A stretch of 24,228 bases of DNA, taken from positions 1-24,228 of the IMG/VR virus record IMGVR_UViG_2541047889_000005; one strand, given 5' to 3'. How positions within the stretch are numbered: position 1 is the first letter of the stretch; each line of letters begins with the position of its first letter. The stretch is from a virus (lineage: Duplodnaviria > Heunggongvirae > Uroviricota > Caudoviricetes). Shown piece after piece: positions 7,720 to 20,000 of this stretch. The position numbers and the translations under genes were made by a program. The notes beneath the pieces were generated by a model, which saw nothing but the letters and a program-made list of their open reading frames with translations, searched no databases and had not been told where the DNA came from.

Positions 7720-8370
7720 TCAGCGGCTGTCATTGCGCAGTCTGCGCTCCAGCTGCTGTTTGTCTTTTTTCACGCCACAGCGGGGATCGAGCTGTAACGC
7801 ATGGTTGAGATGATTAAGGGCGGAAGCCGGATTGCTTTCACTCAGGACAGCGCCAATCGCTTTATGCAGACGCGCCCGTGACTGGTCCGGCATATCCAGA
7901 CCGTCTGTCAGCTCCAGCGTCTGCAGCAACAGATCGGCATCAAAGCCGGTGGCGGCAAGCATTGCGCTCTGCGCTGCATCTGCCATTTCCTCTGCCAGCA
8001 CGGTCTGCACGTTGCGGTTACCCAGCGGCATCACCCAGCCATGACGCAGGGCATGACGCCCGATCTCCAGCGCCCCGGCATAATCTCCGGCATCAATGCG
8101 CCACAGCATCACGTACATCAGCACGTCATCCTGTTGAGCGCCTCCGGCAGCCAGGACGCCCTCCGCCCAGGCGGCATATTTCGGCAGCAGCTCCACCTTG
8201 ATTTCCGCTTTTTTCACCGTGGACTGAACGCCCTTGAGACGGCGGCGGTCTTCCACCAGTTGCAGCAGCATCAGGTCATAGCCCGACGCGTGGCGAACGC
8301 TGCCGCCCTCGCGGGCGGCCTGTTCAGCCTGAACGCGCAGGCGATGCTGCCGTGCGGGACTCAGGCTCAT
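7720..8370 (-). CDS. M: Terminase small (endonuclease) subunit gpM
   Basis: 216 aa; ...GAQQDDVLMYVMLWRIDAGDYAGALEIGRHAL... aligns with the P2 gpM core. Confidence 0.8.
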   Translation of the reverse strand: MSLSPARQHRLRVQAEQAAREGGSVRHASGYDLMLLQLVEDRRRLKGVQSTVKKAEIKVELLPKYAAWAEGVLAAGGAQQDDVLMYVMLWRIDAGDYAGALEIGRHALRHGWVMPLGNRNVQTVLAEEMADAAQSAMLAATGFDADLLLQTLELTDGLDMPDQSRARLHKAIGAVLSESNPASALNHLNHALQLDPRCGVKKDKQQLERRLRNDSR

Positions 8371-10424: not shown

Positions 10425-12191
10425 ATGAACACCACACTGACACCCGCAGATCTCGATCCCCGTCGGCAGGCCATGCTGCTGTACTTTCAGGGATACCGCG
10501 TCGCCCGCATTGCTGAAATGCTGGGCGAGAAAGTTGCAACCGTTCACAGCTGGAAAAAACGCGACAAGTGGGGTGACTATGGGCCGCTGGATCAGATGCA
10601 GCTCACCACCGCCGCACGCTACTGCCAGCTCATTATGAAGGAGCACAAAGAAGGGAAAGATTTCAAAGAGATTGACCTGCTGGCGCGCCAGTCGGAGCGC
10701 CACGCGCGGATCGGCAAGTTTAACAATGGCGGCAACGAAGCCGACTTAAACCCTAACGTCGCCAACCGCAACAAAGGCCCACGCCGTCAGCCGGAAAAGA
10801 ATGTTTTCACCGATGAGCAGATTGAGAAGCTGGAAGAAATCTTCCATTCCTCCATGTTCAACTACCAGCGCCACTGGTGGGAAGCCGGAAAAACCAACCG
10901 CATCCGCAACCTGCTGAAGTCACGCCAGATCGGCGCGACCTTTTACTTTGCCCGTGAAGCCCTGATTGACGCTCTGCTTACCGGACGTAACCAGATTTTC
11001 CTTTCTGCCAGTAAGGCACAGGCCCACGTCTTCAAACAGTACATCATCGACTTTGCCAAAGAAGTGGAGGTGGAGCTGAAAGGCGATCCGATGGTGCTTC
11101 CCAACGGGGCCACACTGTATTTCCTCGGAACCAATGCCCGCACGGCCCAGAGTTACCACGGCAACCTGTATCTGGATGAATATTTCTGGATACCGAAATT
11201 CCAGGAGCTGCGCAAAGTGGCTTCCGGTATGGCTATTCACAAAAAATGGCGACAAACCTATTTTTCCACGCCATCCAGCCTGACCCACAGTGCTTATCCG
11301 TTCTGGTCCGGTGCGCTGTTCAACCGTGGACGCAACAAAGCTGACAAGGTGGACATCGACCTGTCCCACAGCAATCTGGCCCCCGGCCTGCTGTGCGCAG
11401 ACGGGCAATACCGCCAGATAGTCACCGTGGAAGATGCGGTGCGCGGCGGCTGTAACCTGTTCGACCTCGACCAGCTACGCATGGAGTACAGCCCGGACGA
11501 ATACCAGAACCTGCTGATGTGCGAGTTCGTGGACGATCTCGCGTCCGTGTTCCCGCTCAGCGAACTGCAGGCGTGCATGGTGGACAGTTGGGAAGTCTGG
11601 ACCGACTTTCATGCACTGGCCCTGCGCCCGTTTGGCTGGCGCGAGGTGTGGATCGGTTATGACCCGGCAAAAGGTACGCAGAACGGCGACAGCGCCGGAT
11701 GCGTGGTGGTGGCACCACCAGCCGTGCCAGGCGGTAAGTTTCGCATTCTTGAGCGTCACCAGTGGCGCGGGATGGACTTCCGCGCCCAGGCGGACGCCAT
11801 CAAAAAACTGACCGAACAGTACAACGTGACCTATATCGGCATCGACTCGACAGGTGTCGGTCACGGGGTTTACGAGAACGTGAAAGCGTTTTTTCCAGCC
11901 GTCCGGGAGTTTGTCTACAACCCCAACGTTAAAAACGCCCTGGTACTCAAGGCCTACGACATTATCAGCCACCGCCGTCTGGAGTTTGACGCCGGACACA
12001 CCGACATAGCGCAGTCATTTATGGCAATCCGTCGCGCCACCACCGCCAGCGGCAACCGCCCGACCTATGAAGCCAGCCGCAGCGAAGAAGCCAGCCACGC
12101 CGATCTGGCCTGGGCAACGATGCACGCTCTGTTTAACGAACCGCTGCAGGGCGAATCCGCCAATACCAGCAATATTGTGGAGATTTTTTGA
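10425..12191 (+). CDS. P: Terminase large (ATPase) subunit gpP
   Basis: 588 aa; N-terminal MNTTLTPADLDPRRQAMLLYFQGYRVARIAEMLG... and overall size typical of P2 gpP; divergent from O. Confidence 0.85.
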   Translation: MNTTLTPADLDPRRQAMLLYFQGYRVARIAEMLGEKVATVHSWKKRDKWGDYGPLDQMQLTTAARYCQLIMKEHKEGKDFKEIDLLARQSERHARIGKFNNGGNEADLNPNVANRNKGPRRQPEKNVFTDEQIEKLEEIFHSSMFNYQRHWWEAGKTNRIRNLLKSRQIGATFYFAREALIDALLTGRNQIFLSASKAQAHVFKQYIIDFAKEVEVELKGDPMVLPNGATLYFLGTNARTAQSYHGNLYLDEYFWIPKFQELRKVASGMAIHKKWRQTYFSTPSSLTHSAYPFWSGALFNRGRNKADKVDIDLSHSNLAPGLLCADGQYRQIVTVEDAVRGGCNLFDLDQLRMEYSPDEYQNLLMCEFVDDLASVFPLSELQACMVDSWEVWTDFHALALRPFGWREVWIGYDPAKGTQNGDSAGCVVVAPPAVPGGKFRILERHQWRGMDFRAQADAIKKLTEQYNVTYIGIDSTGVGHGVYENVKAFFPAVREFVYNPNVKNALVLKAYDIISHRRLEFDAGHTDIAQSFMAIRRATTASGNRPTYEASRSEEASHADLAWATMHALFNEPLQGESANTSNIVEIF

Positions 12192-13213
12192 TGAAAGAAC
12201 ATATCGCGCCAGACGAAACCGTAACTGCAGAAGAAACTAAAAAATCCGTTGCGGAGGCTTTCAGCTTTGGTGATCCCATTCCTGTACTGGACCGCCGCGA
12301 ACTGCTGGACTATGTGGAATGCGTACAGATGGATCGCTGGTATGAGCCGCCCGTCAGCTTTGACGGACTGGCGCGCACCTTCCGCGCCGCCGTGCACCAC
12401 AGCTCCCCGATCAGTGTTAAGCGTGACATTATCAGCAGTACCTATATTCCACATCGCCTTCTCAGCCAGCAGGCATTTACCCGTTTTGTGCAGGACTATC
12501 TGGTTTTTGGTAACGCCTACCTGGAGAAACGCACGAACCGCTTTGGTGAAGTTATTTCGCTGGAACCTGCACTGGCAAAATACACCCGGCGCGGACTTGA
12601 CCTTGAAACATACTGGTTTGTGCAATACAGCCTGACGACACAGCCGTATCAGTTCACAAAAGGTAATGTCTTCCACCTGATGGAGCCGGATATCAACCAG
12701 GAGATTTATGGTCTGCCGGGTTACCTTTCTGCCATTCCGTCAGCTCTGCTCAACGAATCCGCCACGCTGTTCCGCCGCAAGTATTACATCAACGGCAGTC
12801 ATGCAGGCTTCATCATGTACATGACCGACGCCGCGCAGAACCAGGAGGATGTAAACAACCTCCGTAACGCGATGAAAAGCGCCAAAGGTCCAGGCAACTT
12901 CCGTAATCTGTTTATGTACTCGCCTAACGGCAAAAAAGACGGGCTTCAGATTATCCCGTTATCAGAAGTCGCAGCGAAGGATGAGTTTCTGAATATCAAG
13001 AACGTGAGCCGGGACGACATGATGGCAGCACACCGAGTGCCGCCGCAAATGATGGGGATTATGCCGAATAATGTTGGTGGATTTGGGGATGTGGAGAAAG
13101 CGAGTAAAGTTTTTGTGAGAAATGAACTGATCCCGCTGCAGAAGAGATTATTCGAGATAAATGTATGGCTAGGAGAAAATGTCATTACTTTCCAGCCATA
13201 CAACTTAGATTAA
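12191..13213 (+). CDS. Q: Portal protein gpQ
   Basis: ORF 12188..13213; ATG at 12191 overlaps the P stop (TGATG); about 340 aa as in P2 gpQ. Confidence 0.85.
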   Translation: MKEHIAPDETVTAEETKKSVAEAFSFGDPIPVLDRRELLDYVECVQMDRWYEPPVSFDGLARTFRAAVHHSSPISVKRDIISSTYIPHRLLSQQAFTRFVQDYLVFGNAYLEKRTNRFGEVISLEPALAKYTRRGLDLETYWFVQYSLTTQPYQFTKGNVFHLMEPDINQEIYGLPGYLSAIPSALLNESATLFRRKYYINGSHAGFIMYMTDAAQNQEDVNNLRNAMKSAKGPGNFRNLFMYSPNGKKDGLQIIPLSEVAAKDEFLNIKNVSRDDMMAAHRVPPQMMGIMPNNVGGFGDVEKASKVFVRNELIPLQKRLFEINVWLGENVITFQPYNLD

Positions 13214-13261: not shown

Positions 13262-14266
13262 TTATTCTTCTGAATCATCATAAACATCCATTCCTTCGGT
13301 CTGATTTCTAATATAAGAAGTCCCCATAGAATTAGCAATCGCAGTCCGAATTAACCCTACATGAGTGAAAAACACCCCTAACCTAGCACGCTTTAACTCA
13401 GACTCATCATCATAGTCATCTTCATTACTTATAATTCTTCTAACCATTGCCTTATCTTCGTCAATAGCCGAAGGTAGCCCACTCTTTAAAGCGTCAATAC
13501 ACTCACCTACAGTTATAATTTTATTTTTAATTAATTCAGAAAGCAAATCATCATAATTTTCATCATCAGATTTATTATCAGGTGGTAATTCACTTGCAGC
13601 TATCATTTTCAGCAATTCTACGTCAAGCATAGTTCCTCTATCTAGTCTGCTTGTCTCAACATACCCCTCACGCTCTGATAACACTCTTTCAAATTCGAAA
13701 TCAACGACTTCAAGCAAAGCAGATACTCTATTAATTGCTCGCCTAAGAGGAAGTGGAACACTTTGCTCTTTTTTGTATTGCAGTTTATGAGATGCTGCAG
13801 CCCAAATATGCTGAGAAAGCGTTCGTATTTGCACCTCCACTTTCATATTTTTAAAATCACTAAAGGATGGAACTCTTAGCCATTCTTCTGGAGGTTGTAT
13901 TACATAATGATGAGATTGGTACCCAAATCTATCCTCATCCAGTTCATCAAGTTTATTCTCTTGCTTCAAAATAATGAAATGTTCTTTCAGACAAGATATA
14001 ACCTTTTCAACATCTCGCTTAAATAGCATTATTAATCGGATTCCAACATAATCATCCAAGTCAACTATTGACTCAATCTTTAGAGGTTTTCGGTTATCCT
14101 TATTAATAATAGAACTTAATGTTTTGACACGGCTTTCAATTGGAACCCCTAAAGACAATTTATTCTCCGACAAAATAACATCAATTTGCTCAACCATAAC
14201 TCGTCTGAACAATTCCGCAACTGAGCCGTAAATTGAATGCTGTTCTTTTAATTCTTCGTCTGTCAT
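13262..14266 (-). CDS. RelA/SpoT-fold nucleotidyltransferase (small alarmone synthetase-like; candidate toxSAS/CapRel-like fused toxin-antitoxin)
   Basis: 334 aa; synthetase-fold motifs ESRVKTLSSIINK, DYVGIRLIMLF, FGYQSHHYVI, EVQIRTLSQHIWAAASHKLQYK; about 130-aa acidic C-terminal extension; AT-rich; lies between portal gene and cos. Confidence 0.7.
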   Translation of the reverse strand: MTDEELKEQHSIYGSVAELFRRVMVEQIDVILSENKLSLGVPIESRVKTLSSIINKDNRKPLKIESIVDLDDYVGIRLIMLFKRDVEKVISCLKEHFIILKQENKLDELDEDRFGYQSHHYVIQPPEEWLRVPSFSDFKNMKVEVQIRTLSQHIWAAASHKLQYKKEQSVPLPLRRAINRVSALLEVVDFEFERVLSEREGYVETSRLDRGTMLDVELLKMIAASELPPDNKSDDENYDDLLSELIKNKIITVGECIDALKSGLPSAIDEDKAMVRRIISNEDDYDDESELKRARLGVFFTHVGLIRTAIANSMGTSYIRNQTEGMDVYDDSEE

Positions 14267-14383
14267 CTATCTTACCTAACTTATATAAATGAATCAGATA
14301 TAAAACATTGCATAATTTTAATTCAAGTGGACAACATATAAATTATCCGATCTAAACCACTTAAACAACAGGTTTTGCGCGCG

Positions 14384-14402
14384 CTCGTATCCCCGCCACG
14401 CC
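14384..14402 (-). other. cos-like cohesive-end site (P2/186 type)
   Basis: Minus-strand GGCGTGGCGGGGATACGAG; the first 13 nt match my recollection of the P2/186 19-nt cos core (GGCG[A/T]GGCGGGGA...); located next to the portal gene as expected. Confidence 0.5.
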
Positions 14403-14451
14403 TGCCCGCTTTATGTAGTAGTTTTCATGCAGGTGCATGATCTACGCGAAA

Positions 14452-14471
14452 GCCCGCCAGTTCTGGCGGGC
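14452..14471 (-). terminator. GC-rich hairpin downstream of the membrane-protein gene (putative terminator)
   Basis: gcccgccag-tt-ctggcgggc; followed on the minus transcript by UUUCGCG. Confidence 0.4.
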
Positions 14472-14519
14472 CCTAGCAAAAACGATCCTCAAACGATCAT
14501 GCGATCTCATGCAGCATAG

Positions 14520-15362
14520 TCATGCACGATCATTTGACTCAGCATCTGCTGCACGCTTGCTGCGCGAAGATGCACTTTTACTATCAATCTTTCGACAGTT
14601 CTTTCTATCCCTGGCTTCATTTTCTTTAAATTTGTTATATGTCTCAGTATCAAAAAACGAAATTGTTTCAACCTCATCTTTTGGTATGAGCACACGGAAA
14701 TCTTCGATATTAAGCCGAGACATTCCACTTATCACACCACTATCAAGATAATGTTGGTGATAGTTAGTCGTGATACTAATCGTTAGATCATCTTTATCCC
14801 GATATCCGCTTAACATCGGGAGAAGTTCAAGGTGCTCTGAAAGCCCGTTTTCTAACGCCGGACAAGTAACAAGACCAACATAGATTTTGCGAGACGACAG
14901 AGTTGCTATGATCGGAAACTGTCTTGCGGACGCTTCCATGAGTAATGATTCGAAAGCGTTATTACCCACAGCTTTAGCTAAGGCATCCCAGCGACGATCT
15001 CCACGTGATGTGCGTAACTTATTTCCAAAACCTGAAATCGCAGCGAGGACAATTGAAATCATAACCCATGCTATCTGTTTGATTTCATTTATTCTTTGAA
15101 GTTTGTCTTTCGATGAAGACAACATGCCATTAAAACTGTCAGGTGTTAGATTCAAGGCATTAGCCAGCCAACGAAACCCTCCGCTGACGTTCAAAATAAA
15201 GGTGAAAAAACCGCCAAGGAGAAAAAAAACGATACCCCAGGCAGCCACAAAAAAATAAGCGTCCCAGCCGTTGGAACGCTTATATCGGTATCTTGTTGAA
15301 AGTGATAGGTTTACATAAATAAAACCACTAACCAAAATCACTGCTAAAAGTAATGTTGCCAT
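14520..15362 (-). CDS. Hypothetical membrane protein: three N-terminal TM helices plus about 165-aa cytoplasmic domain
   Basis: 280 aa; hydrophobic segments ATLLLAVILVSGFIYV, AYFFVAAWGIVFFLLGGFFTFIL, IAWVMISIVLAAISGF; start overlaps the stop of the upstream 71-aa gene (TAATG). Confidence 0.65.
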   Translation of the reverse strand: MATLLLAVILVSGFIYVNLSLSTRYRYKRSNGWDAYFFVAAWGIVFFLLGGFFTFILNVSGGFRWLANALNLTPDSFNGMLSSSKDKLQRINEIKQIAWVMISIVLAAISGFGNKLRTSRGDRRWDALAKAVGNNAFESLLMEASARQFPIIATLSSRKIYVGLVTCPALENGLSEHLELLPMLSGYRDKDDLTISITTNYHQHYLDSGVISGMSRLNIEDFRVLIPKDEVETISFFDTETYNKFKENEARDRKNCRKIDSKSASSRSKRAADAESNDRA

Positions 15363-15577
15363 TATCTGGTTCTATTAGTTTTCTCTTTTACAGTGCTCGT
15401 TTTGATGCCTTCAAGCTTATCCATCTGTGCCTTGATGGCATCCATTGCTCTTTTGTTAGACAAGTCTACGGACACAAAACCATCTTTACTAAGATTGAGT
15501 TTGTCCTGGTTCTCTTTAAGAACCCTTGCCAGACGTTCAACTGGGTTACCCAGGCTAAATGCGGCGATGCTTGACAT
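15362..15577 (-). CDS. Hypothetical small protein (71 aa), translationally coupled to the downstream membrane protein
   Basis: ATG preceded by a strong GGGGGAG RBS; charged and soluble; 270-bp AT-rich intergenic region upstream. Confidence 0.6.
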   Translation of the reverse strand: MSSIAAFSLGNPVERLARVLKENQDKLNLSKDGFVSVDLSNKRAMDAIKAQMDKLEGIKTSTVKEKTNRTR

Positions 15578-16432: not shown

Positions 16433-18847
16433 TTAATACAGGTTTCGCCACTTATCATCTTCCTGCAAACGCTGGTTCCGATAGAAGATACGCAGGCCTG
16501 CTCCTGACGGAATACTGCCGCCGCGAAGGAGTAAATCGACCTCTTTCTCGCTACCATCAAATCCTCTGGACTTCAGCTCATAGACTAGCTGCAGTCGCTG
16601 ATGGTCTGTAATTCGCTGTTTGTAGTCTTTACGCCGTTTCGGTTTAACCAGGCGTAACCTTGCTGCCAGTTCCCGGCGCTCTTTTTTGCTCATACTGTGC
16701 AGGTAATCGTGCAACTGCTTGTCATCCATGCGGGTAATGTCCGTTCTGGTGCCCCCATCAGCTGATTTATCTTTCTCCTGTTGGTTCAAATTTTCAGCAA
16801 GGGGACAGTTATTGCCACGAGTCCAAGGGGCGCAAGCGCCCTGGTCGGCTGCCGCCTCCTGAATGTCAACGGCCTTACGAACCATTTTCCACTTCACCGC
16901 ATGAGTGCAGATCTTGCCCTCTGCAATGGGTGACCAGATGCCATAAATACGAATACCGTGATCGCCATAGGCGGTCGGCTCTTCGTTGATTTCATAAGCG
17001 GTTCTGATGAGGTGATATTTGCGGGGAACCAGTACGCCGCCCTGCTTCATGATGTAGGTGGCAAAACAGCCAGCATCAGCGGCAGCCAGGATGGCATCAA
17101 GGCGCGGGTTATCCAGTACCGGCGCACCTGCTTTTTTGTCCCCCTGTTGCCTTGCCGCCTGACCAGCCAGCAATCGCAGTTCACGGTAAGCCTGACGCCC
17201 CGGAATGCCAAAGAAGCGGAATTGCTGAACACGATGCAGAGACGCCCAGGCATTAACGTATTCGGCGTTATCACGCAGGGATTTACCCGTTTCCTTGCTG
17301 ATCTCGCCAGCCAGACCACGCCCGTCAATGTTCTTACTGATGTATTTCGCGATGTAGCTTGTTGGCGTACCTTTGCGCGGGTTTATCAGCTCAGACTTAA
17401 AGCGTGGTTCCGTGTTATTACCCAGCTCCTCGCGGTCTTCACGAATGGCAAACTTACGCAACAAAGCAGTAATGGCGCGGCGATCTTTTTTGCGCATAAA
17501 ACACAACAGGTGCCAGTGAACTGTACCGTCATGATGCGGCTCAGCCACCCGCACGCCATACCAGCGTAATCCGGCTTTGTGCATCGCCTTACGAAATGCA
17601 GCAAACATACCGACCAGATAATCACTGCTTTGTCTTACCGTCGCATTTGTCCAGGTCGGGTTGGGCCTGCCGTTATTTAGCGTGGAATGGAAACGTGACG
17701 GACAGGTGATGGTGTAGAAAACGGCGCAGTCACCGCGCATTTCCGCGATAAGCTCCAGACCTTTAACACAGGCCATCATCTCATTGCGGCGATGCGCAGG
17801 GTTGCTGCTGCTGGCGTTTACCACGTCTTCCATATCCAGCGTGTCGCCGTCTTCGTTCACCAGTTCATGAGAACGGAAAAACTCCAGCGACTTACGGCGC
17901 TGCTCACGTTTATGCATCACGGCTTCATAGCTGACATAGGGAGATGCTTTTTTGCTGACCAGGCAAACAGCACGCAACTGCTCTTCCCGCCATTCGCAAC
18001 GCATCTTCCATAATTTCCGATACCACCAGTCGGCGCATAACATACGCGCCAGCGAACCCGGAATGAGTTCATAAGGCACGGGTTTACGGCGGTTTCTTTT
18101 CCGACGGAGTTGCTCAAACGCAGGCGGGATAACATCCAGACGCAGGGTTTCCGCTGCCACCTTTTCCCATGTCTTGCGGATTTCTTCTGGCGTAACATCA
18201 TCGGTGGCATACAAATCGCCACAAGCTGTATCAAGGCACATGCTCATATGCGCAGCTACCAAGGTGGACAGGCGTTTCACCTGATCCTGACTCATTTCAG
18301 GCAGGATCAGCAGGCCGTCCAGCCCTTCATGGCTTGCCATAAAGCGAAAAGAAGTGGATAGCTGACTGTCGCGTACATGCTCCAGTCGTTCCAAGCATGG
18401 CTTAATCGTCTCACGCAAATAGCGGGAATAAGCCTTTGGCCTGCCCAGGCTGCTGAAGTATTTAATACGTTGCATCAGCGGCTTGCTGATATGGGAAGGC
18501 TGGGCGTTGACGTCCGCCAGAATGGCCATGTCTGGATTAAAACGCTGCTGCTCATGCGCCAGCTTTGCCCGGCTAATTAGCTTATCCTGCTCCATTTCGC
18601 GTTGGACAGGATCACGGGATTCATTAAAGAAATAACGCTCCCAGACCTGATCACTCAGTGCCTCGCGGCGCAGTTGTTCCTGCTCGTTATCGGCAGCGTA
18701 CAGAGTGATCAGGTTTGAAAGCGCAGAAACCGGCGCAACTTCCGCCGGGTCCAGATAAGGGTTAATGGCCTTTTTCGGGCTGTTCCATGAGAATGCTGCG
18801 GCGACCTCGTTAAAGCCGCTGCAGTTGTTCATATCAGCATGGCTCAT
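16433..18847 (-). CDS. A: Replication initiation protein gpA (rolling-circle endonuclease)
   Basis: ORF 16433..18874; probable ATG at 18847 overlapping the dam stop (ATGA); about 800 aa as in P2/186 gpA. Confidence 0.8.
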
Positions 18848-19701
18848 GCACGCACTCCGTACACGACGGAACAATCCACGCCACGCGAAGGATCAAATCC
18901 TACCCAGCAGCGCGGCCCGGAAACAGCGATGATTTCTGTTGCAGATTTACTCTCACCAGCTGCCACGCCGATGCTGCGTTTTGCCTTGATGTAGTGGTGA
19001 GTAAAATTGCGATACAGCGAACGGATCAGGGGTGTGTCACTGTTAGAAACAATGACCGGATGACCTTCAGATGATCGATGTTCAAGAACGGATGCCAGGT
19101 GATACTGGTCATCTTCAGTGAAGCCATCAGTGTGATAGCCGGAAAACGTACCGTCATAAGGCGGATCGCAATACACCACATCCCCCGCCTTCAACATCGC
19201 CAGCGTTTCATCAAAGCTGGCGCAGATAAACGTTGCCCGCTGGGCTTTCTCTGCAAATGCGCGAATTTCTTTTTCAGGGAAATACGGATTTTTATAATTA
19301 CCGTAGGGAATGTTGAAATACCCGCTCTTGTTATAGCGACATAGCCCACGGTAACCATGACGATTGAGATACAGAAAATATACCGCTTTCATGAAATCAG
19401 TAATTTCAGTGGAGTAATTAAACTCCTGCCTTATGTTGTAATAAGCCACCTCTCTGTTTGCTTCCTCAAATAAAGCTCTGGCACGAGATATAAACGCCTC
19501 ACAATCAGCAGCAACCTTTTTATAGAGGTTGATTAAATCAGGATTAATATCCGCAACCAGATAGCTGGGGTAATCCGTCTCCATCATCACAGCACAAGAA
19601 CCCGCGAAAGGTTCAACCAGTCGCGTGCCAGCAGGAAGGTATTTTTTCAGTTCGGACATAATGGTGGTTTTATTACCCGCCCATTTCAGGATGGTGCTCA
19701 T
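18844..19701 (-). CDS. dam: DNA adenine methyltransferase (Dam-like, D12 class N6-adenine MTase)
   Basis: ORF 18844..19773; ATG at 19701 with AGGAGG RBS; motifs [16 protein letters not shown] and catalytic DPPY (VYCDPPYDG). Confidence 0.85.
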
Positions 19702-20000
19702 ACAGCACCTCCTGCAATAACATATCCTAAAGCTTCTAATGGGGTTAATGAGCGAATTGATAGCATCACCCATTGTTCTGAAACTGCCATGACGTCATTA
19801 ACCGGAAGCACATGAGAGATAACCGCGGCCCATTCCCTACCCGTAAATACGCCATGCTTCCATTCGCAAAGAGAAAGAACATCACCAACTTTATAGCCAC
19901 GATCGTCTTTACGAAGTTCAGCCGTCTTTTGACCTGCAACCACAGCGTTGAAATACTTAGGTGCAATTTTTAATTGATGGATACGCACAGCCCCTGTCAT
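19698..20000 (-). CDS. Hypothetical phage protein (about 100 aa; possible ASCH/PUA-like fold)
   Basis: ORF 19698..20060; ATG at 20000 with GGAGG RBS; [42 protein letters not shown]; fold assignment is my guess only. Confidence 0.5.

Follow-up and report, generated by a model that had tools for sequence, protein, structure and literature searches.

Phages P2 and 186 and the satellite P4 carry the closest described relatives of the DNA packaging site that is the subject of this study. P2 and P4 are identical over 55 bp, from TGCAT at −29 through the overhang to GCGCGC, and later papers credit this "55-bp core" to Ziermann and Calendar 1990 (PMC5694545, PMC3931495, PMC9594776, PMC5247547). The sequence shared by P4-like satellites and their helpers was reported to be confined to cos, and the genes next to cos vary among relatives, this being a known cos-adjacent defence hotspot (PMC9122126). 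We analysed a stretch of 24,228 nt from the virus record IMGVR_UViG_2541047889_000005 (hereafter the window, at its full length), which is a P2/186/Fels-2-like E. coli prophage, reversed relative to the P2 map. A first-pass annotation of this DNA had pointed out a cluster of TCATGCA repeats next to a cos-like site, and suggested terminase-binding (cosB-like) or regulatory sites. We report here that these repeats are position-locked (T/C)GCAT boxes of the DNA packaging signal common to the P2 family and the P4 satellites.

Results

The cohesive end and the 55-bp core

The cohesive end of the window (cosN, 14384-14402, minus strand) reads GGCGTGGCGGGGATACGAG and gives a 19-nt 5′ overhang. Its first 13 nt are those of the annotated cohesive ends of 186 (GGCGTGGCGGGGAAAGCAT) and P2 (GGCGAGGCGGGGAAAGCAC), and it has the form expected in the P2 family, a 19-nt G+C-rich end starting with GGCGNGGCGGGG. 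The terminus of the deposited record of Salmonella phage SEN8 aligns with window position 14403, adjoining cosN. By both its match to the 186 and P2 ends and the SEN8 terminus, the site that had been called cos-like is genuine. The same overhang type was found in 39 IMG/VR loci.

Directly after the cohesive end comes (T/C)GCGCGC (14377-14383, minus strand), the left-end-side border of the P2/P4 core. It is present in P2, 186 and P4, and a MAFFT alignment of 74 family representatives shows almost no variation there (columns +19 to +25). On the other side of the nick, the segment GAAAAC...CATAAAGCGGGCA (14403-14426, minus strand) has a high information content in the same alignment (columns −24 to −1). 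Positions 14377-14431 of the window align column for column with P2, 186 and P4, i.e. the 55-bp core is entire. The flank on the right-end side, which carries more distal boxes at −101, −111 and −124, is present as well, as it is in P2, 186 and P4. The placement is also that of the family: cos lies between the portal gene Q and the accessory region on the gpA side, and the genes of the small (gpM) and large (gpP) terminase subunits are in the same element. Ziermann and Calendar reportedly delimited in 1990 a functional cos of about 125 bp, which would include this extended flank. We conclude that, at the level of sequence, the locus has every feature of a P2-family cos site.

Five boxes at fixed distances from the nick

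On re-counting, TCATGCA was found at 14425-14431, 14507-14513 and 14520-14526, and TGCATGA at 14434-14440, exactly where they had been reported. Over the whole window the heptamer is not enriched (8 copies on both strands, 5.8 expected), but 4 of these 8 copies stand within 102 bp next to cos, and random placement reaches such a clustering with a probability of 0.0001 (20,000 trials). Half of the copies thus lie within about 100 bp of sequence rather than being spread genome-wide, and the density next to cos that had been noticed is real. For the core GCATG, 5 copies were counted in 105 bp (P = 0.0012), and this search exposed a fifth copy that had been overlooked, CGCATGA on the minus strand (core 14499-14503).

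The positions of the boxes are given hereafter in the P2 orientation, which is the reverse complement of the window, and are counted from the top-strand nick. Box B1 (14427-14431, minus strand, at −29) is a TGCAT followed by (G/T)AAAAC, inside the TCATGCA of 14425-14431. It forms the outer end of the 55-bp core: the published core begins exactly at B1, so that our map fits with published work (PMC5694545, PMC3931495). Box B2 (14434-14438, plus strand, at −36) is an inverted ATGCA inside the TGCATGA of 14434-14440, and an inverted-repeat scan showed that B1 and B2 together form the palindrome ATGCAnnTGCAT. Box B3 (14499-14503, minus strand, at −101) reads CGCAT, with the family consensus TTTGCATG, and is the copy missed in the first reading. 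Box B4 (14509-14513, minus strand, at −111) and box B5 (14522-14526, minus strand, at −124) are both TGCAT, inside the TCATGCA of 14507-14513 and of 14520-14526 respectively, and the conserved block described below ends outward at B5. The four heptamers seen initially are therefore B1, B2, B4 and B5.

All of the additional conserved sequence is on one side of cosN (14403-14527), the right-end side on the P2 map. It consists of a proximal inverted pair, B1/B2, 25-36 bp from the nick, and of a distal direct array, B3-B5, 97-124 bp from it, whose copies are spaced about one helical turn apart and are located outside the 55-bp core. Between pair and array there is a constant 72 bp (∼7 helical turns), with a G+C-rich dyad inside. 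In the literature on P2-like cos sites, the distal boxes were discussed in no paper that we found, the 1990 article of Ziermann and Calendar being outside the coverage of the search.

A second word, ACGATCAT, had been listed among the repeats of the cluster. It is indeed present, at 14493-14500 as reported and at 14526-14533, one base away from the 14527-14534 given before, but it is not a separate repeat family, and its count in the window (2, for 0.8 expected) is not significant. We rejected it as an independent repeat: the copy at 14526 lies past B5, where the sequence of relatives is unrelated, and is found only in near-identical relatives, while the copy at 14493 is made of the B3 flank and of part of a lineage-specific pair of GATC sites.

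Conservation in P2-like phages and in P4-like satellites

When the window was compared to phage records by megablast and blastn, only 14375-14527 aligned, with 88-95% identity and whatever the flanking genes. Matches to this block included Fels-2, SopEPhi, many Klebsiella prophages and a Yersinia phage, and in most of the phage-record matches no feature was annotated under the block. Remoter P2-like phages aligned only over 14377-14440 or 14377-14469. Among 5426 complete E. coli genomes, 1286 carry the block, with alignments ending at 14527. This border, where the BLAST alignments end, is the outermost box, B5, independently of the cargo gene that follows.

A scan of IMG/VR with GGGCNGGCGNGGCGGGGA yielded 119 loci, and 112 unique cos regions remained after a check of the flanks, from which 72 representatives below 80% ungapped identity were taken. 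Among these, exact starts were found at −29 in 70 cases for TGCAT and at −36 in 42 for ATGCA; for GCAT, they were found at −100 in 59, at −110 in 55, and at −123, −120 or −119 in 64. Outside the core, the information content of the MAFFT alignment peaked at the boxes alone, apart from a weaker maximum at the central dyad CCAG..CTGGCG.

Loci were then classed by tblastn (P4 psu, sid and delta versus gpA and gpQ), and the occupancy of each box was counted within ±3 bp. In the 72 P2-like representatives, B1 was present in all, at exactly −29, B2 in 50 (69%), B3 in 69, B4 in 64 and B5 in 62. The corresponding numbers in the 9 P4-like representatives were 9, 4, 9, 9 and 8. Each of the four direct boxes is thus found in 86-100% of the P2-like representatives, compared to a rate of 2.5% at control offsets (50/1998). 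Phages P2 and 186, satellite P4 and 8 of the 9 P4-like representatives all carry the full set of four direct boxes. Spacing is equally constrained in the P2-like representatives. B1 and B3 stand 72 bp apart in 59 of 69 cases, the range over all of them being 71-73 bp, and B3 and B4 stand 10 bp apart in all 63 cases. For B4 and B5 the distance is 13 bp in 34 cases and 10 bp in 14. Alignment with the cos flanks of P2 and 186, a check that had been proposed at the outset, gave the same picture, with (T/C)GCAT boxes at equal distances from the nick in flanks that are otherwise not alignable. Further away, Erwinia phage ENT90 has all five boxes, and a Ralstonia P2-like phage has four of the five, at −110, −100, −36 and −29.

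One locus with the overhang type of the window, L007 (IMGVR_UViG_3300011921_000023), has an intact core, with B2, B3-B5 and both sites of the GATC pair mutated. It may be a decaying, packaging-defective prophage.

The boxes as putative recognition sites for the helper terminase

The boxes are locked to the nick rather than to the neighbouring genes, and they are kept by satellites; for these reasons we take them as recognition sites for the helper terminase. P4 is informative in this respect, as it borrows only packaging and structural functions and yet keeps the boxes, which argues for a role in packaging, i.e. terminase recognition, and not in gene regulation. Of the two roles proposed in the first-pass annotation, it is therefore the terminase-binding one that the comparative data support. 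The boxes are probably a cosB-like recognition array, the recognition half of the P2-family cos. In the mechanism that we propose, the helper-encoded gpP and gpM terminase would bind the boxes cooperatively, and the DNA between the two groups of boxes would bend or loop. The bound complex would then set the gpP nuclease on cosN and flag the DNA for packaging, the way lambda cosB does. An indirect functional hint comes from a P2 cosmid with longer cos flanks, which was transduced >10,000-fold more than a cosmid with a short signal (PMC9594776).

We asked which of the two subunits might read the boxes. The AlphaFold2 model of gpM (30 homologues, predicted local distance difference test score, pLDDT, of 88) is an all-alpha, tetratricopeptide repeat (TPR)-like fold. 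Compared to the PDB with Foldseek, it gave no significant match (best E = 0.014), and a PDB sequence search found no solved relative, gpM having no similarity to solved small terminases or nucleases. In the absence of a PDB sequence match, and with a TPR-like model, gpM was rejected as a classical helix-turn-helix (HTH) small terminase. In gpP, residues 13-46 gave sub-threshold Pfam matches to Sigma70_r4_2 and HTH_23. An HTH-like domain predicted at the N-terminus of gpP appears the more likely box reader, no DNA-binding fold being recognisable in the gpM model.

Several points weigh against terminase recognition as the role of the boxes. Our literature search, whose coverage did not extend to Ziermann and Calendar 1990, retrieved no binding, footprint or mutational data on the boxes, and nothing on box function or on the direction of P2 packaging. 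The HTH call at the gpP N-terminus comes from the sub-threshold Pfam matches just mentioned and from PDB sequence matches of residues 1-120 that are non-significant (HTH matches with E >= 0.5 only); a single-sequence AlphaFold2 prediction of the same residues gave an unusable model (pLDDT 47). The lack of a recognisable DNA-binding fold in the gpM model counts on the same side. In P2, B5 (33451-33455) overlaps the −35 region (TTGAAT, minus strand) of the annotated old-tin promoter, so that some boxes may have a second role. Finally, in Aeromonas phage vB_AsaM_LPM4 (locus L128) only B1 is found, and three copies of AAGGATC replace the distal array, from about −130 to −85. This means that the distal array is not universal; judging from such sequences, it may be a swappable specificity module.

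The main outcome is that the unannotated 153-bp block 14375-14527, which ends at the outermost TGCAT box, is probably the entire signal for packaging in this group of phages. Such a map could be used to delimit the two cos-flanking defence-gene hotspots, to design P2/P4 cosmids, and to recognise P4-like satellites by their shared boxes. It also offers a testable target for DNA recognition by P2-type terminases, made of five boxes and a rigid 72-bp spacer on the DNA side, and of an HTH-like large and a TPR-like small subunit on the protein side.

GATC sites and host proteins

It is also conceivable, but unlikely, that the boxes are bound by a host architectural or methylation-reading protein (a bending protein, or SeqA or Dam at GATC), and that terminase contacts the 55-bp core only. 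A bent architecture is suggested by the fixed 72-bp spacer, with its moderately conserved T-tract and dyad. Moreover, five GATC sites are present in ∼95 bp (14439-14531), the densest cluster of the 82 sites of the window (P = 0.024). Several of them abut boxes (GCATGATC), and others flank B2 and B5. Two sites, at 14484 and 14495, form the lineage-specific pair (14484-14498), inside a direct repeat of two copies of AAACGATC with an 11-bp spacing. This pair, at −96/−85 and adjoining B3, was found in 43 of the 112 cos regions (e.g. L015, L029, L085, L115): in 39 of the 42 loci with the overhang type of the window, plus a few others. In 18 representatives both of its GATC sites are at least 90% conserved and the spacer is variable, so that the pair is kept across lineages with differing spacers, and in several of them it is a palindrome, GATCC-N5-GGATC. 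A phage dam gene also tends to accompany it (11 of 13 dam+ loci have the pair, versus 3 of 23 dam− loci, Fisher 3.7e-5). However, dam+ loci come nearly all from one lineage, and we dropped this association as evidence of function, since it is confounded by shared ancestry. A host protein is further argued against by P2, 186 and P4, which package well and do not have the pair, and by a search of 14403-14527 for the consensus of integration host factor (IHF, WATCAANNNNTTR, with at most one mismatch), which found none. TGCAT is not known to match any host-factor consensus.

A more specific possibility, in which we place little confidence, is that in the Dam-encoding branch of P2-like phages, to which this prophage belongs, the GATC pair (GCATGATC-N6/7-GGATCG), together with the sites flanking B2 and B5, might make cos recognition sensitive to adenine methylation. 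Were this true, cutting and packaging would be restricted to DNA that is fully methylated or newly replicated, in analogy to P1 pac, and this methylation layer, missing from P2, 186 and P4-type satellites, could bias packaging between helper and satellite. As to the background of GATC sites over the whole flanks of the IMG/VR loci, it amounts to ∼0.16 per 150 bp in loci with a P2-type overhang and ∼0.49 in GGATACGAG-type loci, for ∼0.59 expected with equal base use, which suggests GATC avoidance in P2-type phages without Dam.

Other packaging steps

Quite unlikely too is the use of the boxes at another step of packaging, such as a cosQ-like termination or nick control, the protection of the ends, or circularisation after injection. 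From the comparative data it follows only that the boxes hold a fixed position relative to the nick; they do not tell which step makes use of them. P2 is reported to mature monomeric circles, a single cos thus serving both initiation and termination. On the other hand, initiation sites such as lambda cosB and SPP1 pacL/pacR typically have several copies in helical phase, all to one side of the nick.

The central dyad and transcription

The spacer between the two groups of boxes contains a G+C-rich dyad, GCCCGCCAG-tt-CTGGCGGGC (14452-14471), with perfect 9-bp arms and a core, CCAGnnCTGGCG, that is found family-wide. Its columns (−64 to −52) are moderately conserved. A minus-strand RNA of 55 nt spanning the dyad folds with −27.2 kcal/mol (z = −4.6), and across the family the mean minimum free energy of the dyad region is −11.4 kcal/mol, versus −5.7 kcal/mol in a control region. 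Strong hairpins are predicted in 31 of the 72 representatives, only 9 of which have a T-rich tail.

In the window, the hairpin stands 46 nt downstream of the stop of a 280-aa open reading frame (ORF), and only three T residues follow the stem. Accordingly, a scan for promoters and terminators called none in 14375-14527, the hairpin failing for want of a T-run. In the lineage of the window, the hairpin possibly terminates transcription of this 280-aa cargo ORF, which reads into cos. We read the dyad as a family-wide element that may double, in some lineages, as a terminator shielding cos from read-through.

Could the boxes themselves act in transcription of the adjoining cargo genes, as elements of a promoter, operator or terminator? 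The hairpin and its place after the ORF would speak for it, as would the hairpin followed by T8 that ENT90 has at the corresponding place, and the annotated old-tin mRNA of P2, which starts at 33424/33426, 25-27 bp from B5, in addition to the −35 overlap. We nevertheless consider it very unlikely, as it suits the hairpin alone and not the boxes. These are fixed relative to the nick and not to any gene, and the neighbouring genes vary in identity and orientation among relatives (PMC9122126). In the window, moreover, the ORF is transcribed toward the boxes, which lie downstream of its stop, and the scan for promoters and terminators was negative across the block. As for a chance coincidence of short words, compatible with the unenriched whole-window counts of TCATGCA and ACGATCAT, it is refuted by the clustering (P ∼1e-4) and by the conserved position of the boxes in 72 P2-like and 9 P4-like diverged relatives, against the 2.5% background.

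Two resemblances between the dyad and the cohesive end were observed. The heptamer CCCGCCA/TGGCGGG of the cohesive end (14392-14398) recurs in both arms of the hairpin, at 14453-14459 and 14464-14470, and the GTGGCGGGG of the overhang is similar to CTGGCG.GG, the consensus that the dyad has in the family. A search for RNA families returned only a spurious miRNA match (E = 0.11), outside the block.

Genomic setting

At least 80% of the window is present in 443 complete E. coli genomes, and the top match is 98.5% identical. According to the ORF list and the RefSeq annotation of this 98.5%-identical prophage, genes and cos follow each other as M, N, O, P, Q, cos, cargo, A, dam, int. The small terminase subunit gpM (7720-8370, minus strand; Pfam PF05944, E = 8e-40) is separated from the large terminase gpP (10425-12191, plus strand; PF06056, PF03237, PF17289) by capsid and scaffold genes. 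According to Pfam, gpP has an N-terminal Terminase_5 domain, an ATPase and an RNaseH-like nuclease. It is followed by the portal gpQ (12188-13213, plus strand) and, beyond cos, by the replication gene A (gpA, 16433-18874, minus strand) and the phage Dam methylase (18844-19773, minus strand), the integrase being last in the listed order, after dam. The listed dam and gpA ORFs share 31 nt; the coding sequences (CDS) annotated for them in the closest relative share 4 nt.

Cargo is found on both sides of cos. Between Q and cos lies an A+T-rich ORF of 334 aa (13262-14266, minus strand, 35.5% GC), with a RelA/SpoT nucleotidyltransferase domain (PF04607, E = 7.5e-20) and a match to the PADLOC candidate defence family PDC-S33 (E = 1.8e-16). 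It looks like a toxSAS/CapRel-like defence cargo of the cos-Q hotspot. Three short CDS, including a "GTP pyrophosphokinase", are annotated over the corresponding region of L001, the closest E. coli relative, and the gene appears to be disrupted there.

The cargo of the hotspot on the gpA side consists of two genes (14520-15577, minus strand), the 280-aa ORF (14520-15362, minus strand) and an overlapping ORF of 71 aa, neither of which has a match in Pfam or PADLOC. Translation and hydropathy of the 280-aa ORF reveal about three N-terminal hydrophobic segments, in agreement with the label of membrane protein that it had been given. It had also been proposed that protein coding and DNA site share sequence at this place. 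The overlap exists, but is of just 8 nt: the ORF lies outside the cos signal and ends with ...CGT GCA TGA, and only these last 8 nt, that is the Arg and Ala codons and the TGA stop, which is contained in the box, are shared with B5.

Comparison with known systems

Two packaging sites, besides those of the P2 family, bear some likeness to the signal described here. The cosB site of lambda, with its gpNu1 sites R3-I1-R2-R1, also has short repeated boxes on one side only of the nick site, arranged as a nick-proximal site and a distal group with a fixed spacer, which implies a bent or looped nucleoprotein complex. There is however no sequence similarity between the two, and the proteins are unrelated: gpM is predicted to be TPR-like, and gpNu1 is a winged-helix protein, the HTH-like domain being predicted on the large subunit in the case of the window. 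The spacer of the window also differs in having no IHF consensus at up to one mismatch (14403-14527).

The pac site of P1 is made of repeats of the hexamer TGATCA/G, and its cleavage reportedly depends on Dam methylation (Sternberg and Coulby 1990). Like P1 pac, the packaging site of the window is GATC-dense, and the phage encodes its own Dam (18844-19773). It is, in contrast, a cos system and not a headful pac, and GATC is not the repeated unit of the signal, nor is it found in P2, 186 and P4.

The match is far closer with the cos sites of P2, 186 and P4. They have in common with the window an overhang starting with GGCG(T/A)GGCGGGGA, a core going from TGCAT(G/T)AAAAC to GCGCGC, a location between the portal gene Q and the gpA-side cargo hotspot, and terminase genes of the gpM/gpP type. 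All five box offsets are shared with 186, and those of B1 and B3-B5 with P2 and P4. It is also with 186 that the window shares the inverted ATGCA at −36 before B1 and the CCAG..CTGGCG dyad in the spacer, whereas P2 has no such ATGCA and no clear dyad there. The differences are the 3′ part of the overhang, which is ATACGAG in the window (Fels-2/Klebsiella type) and AAGCAC/T in the others, the CGCAT of box B3, and two additions in the lineage of the window, the GATC pair at −96/−85 and the perfect 9-bp hairpin of the spacer. The element is of an ordinary, already known kind, found here in one more prophage, and not a new kind of system.

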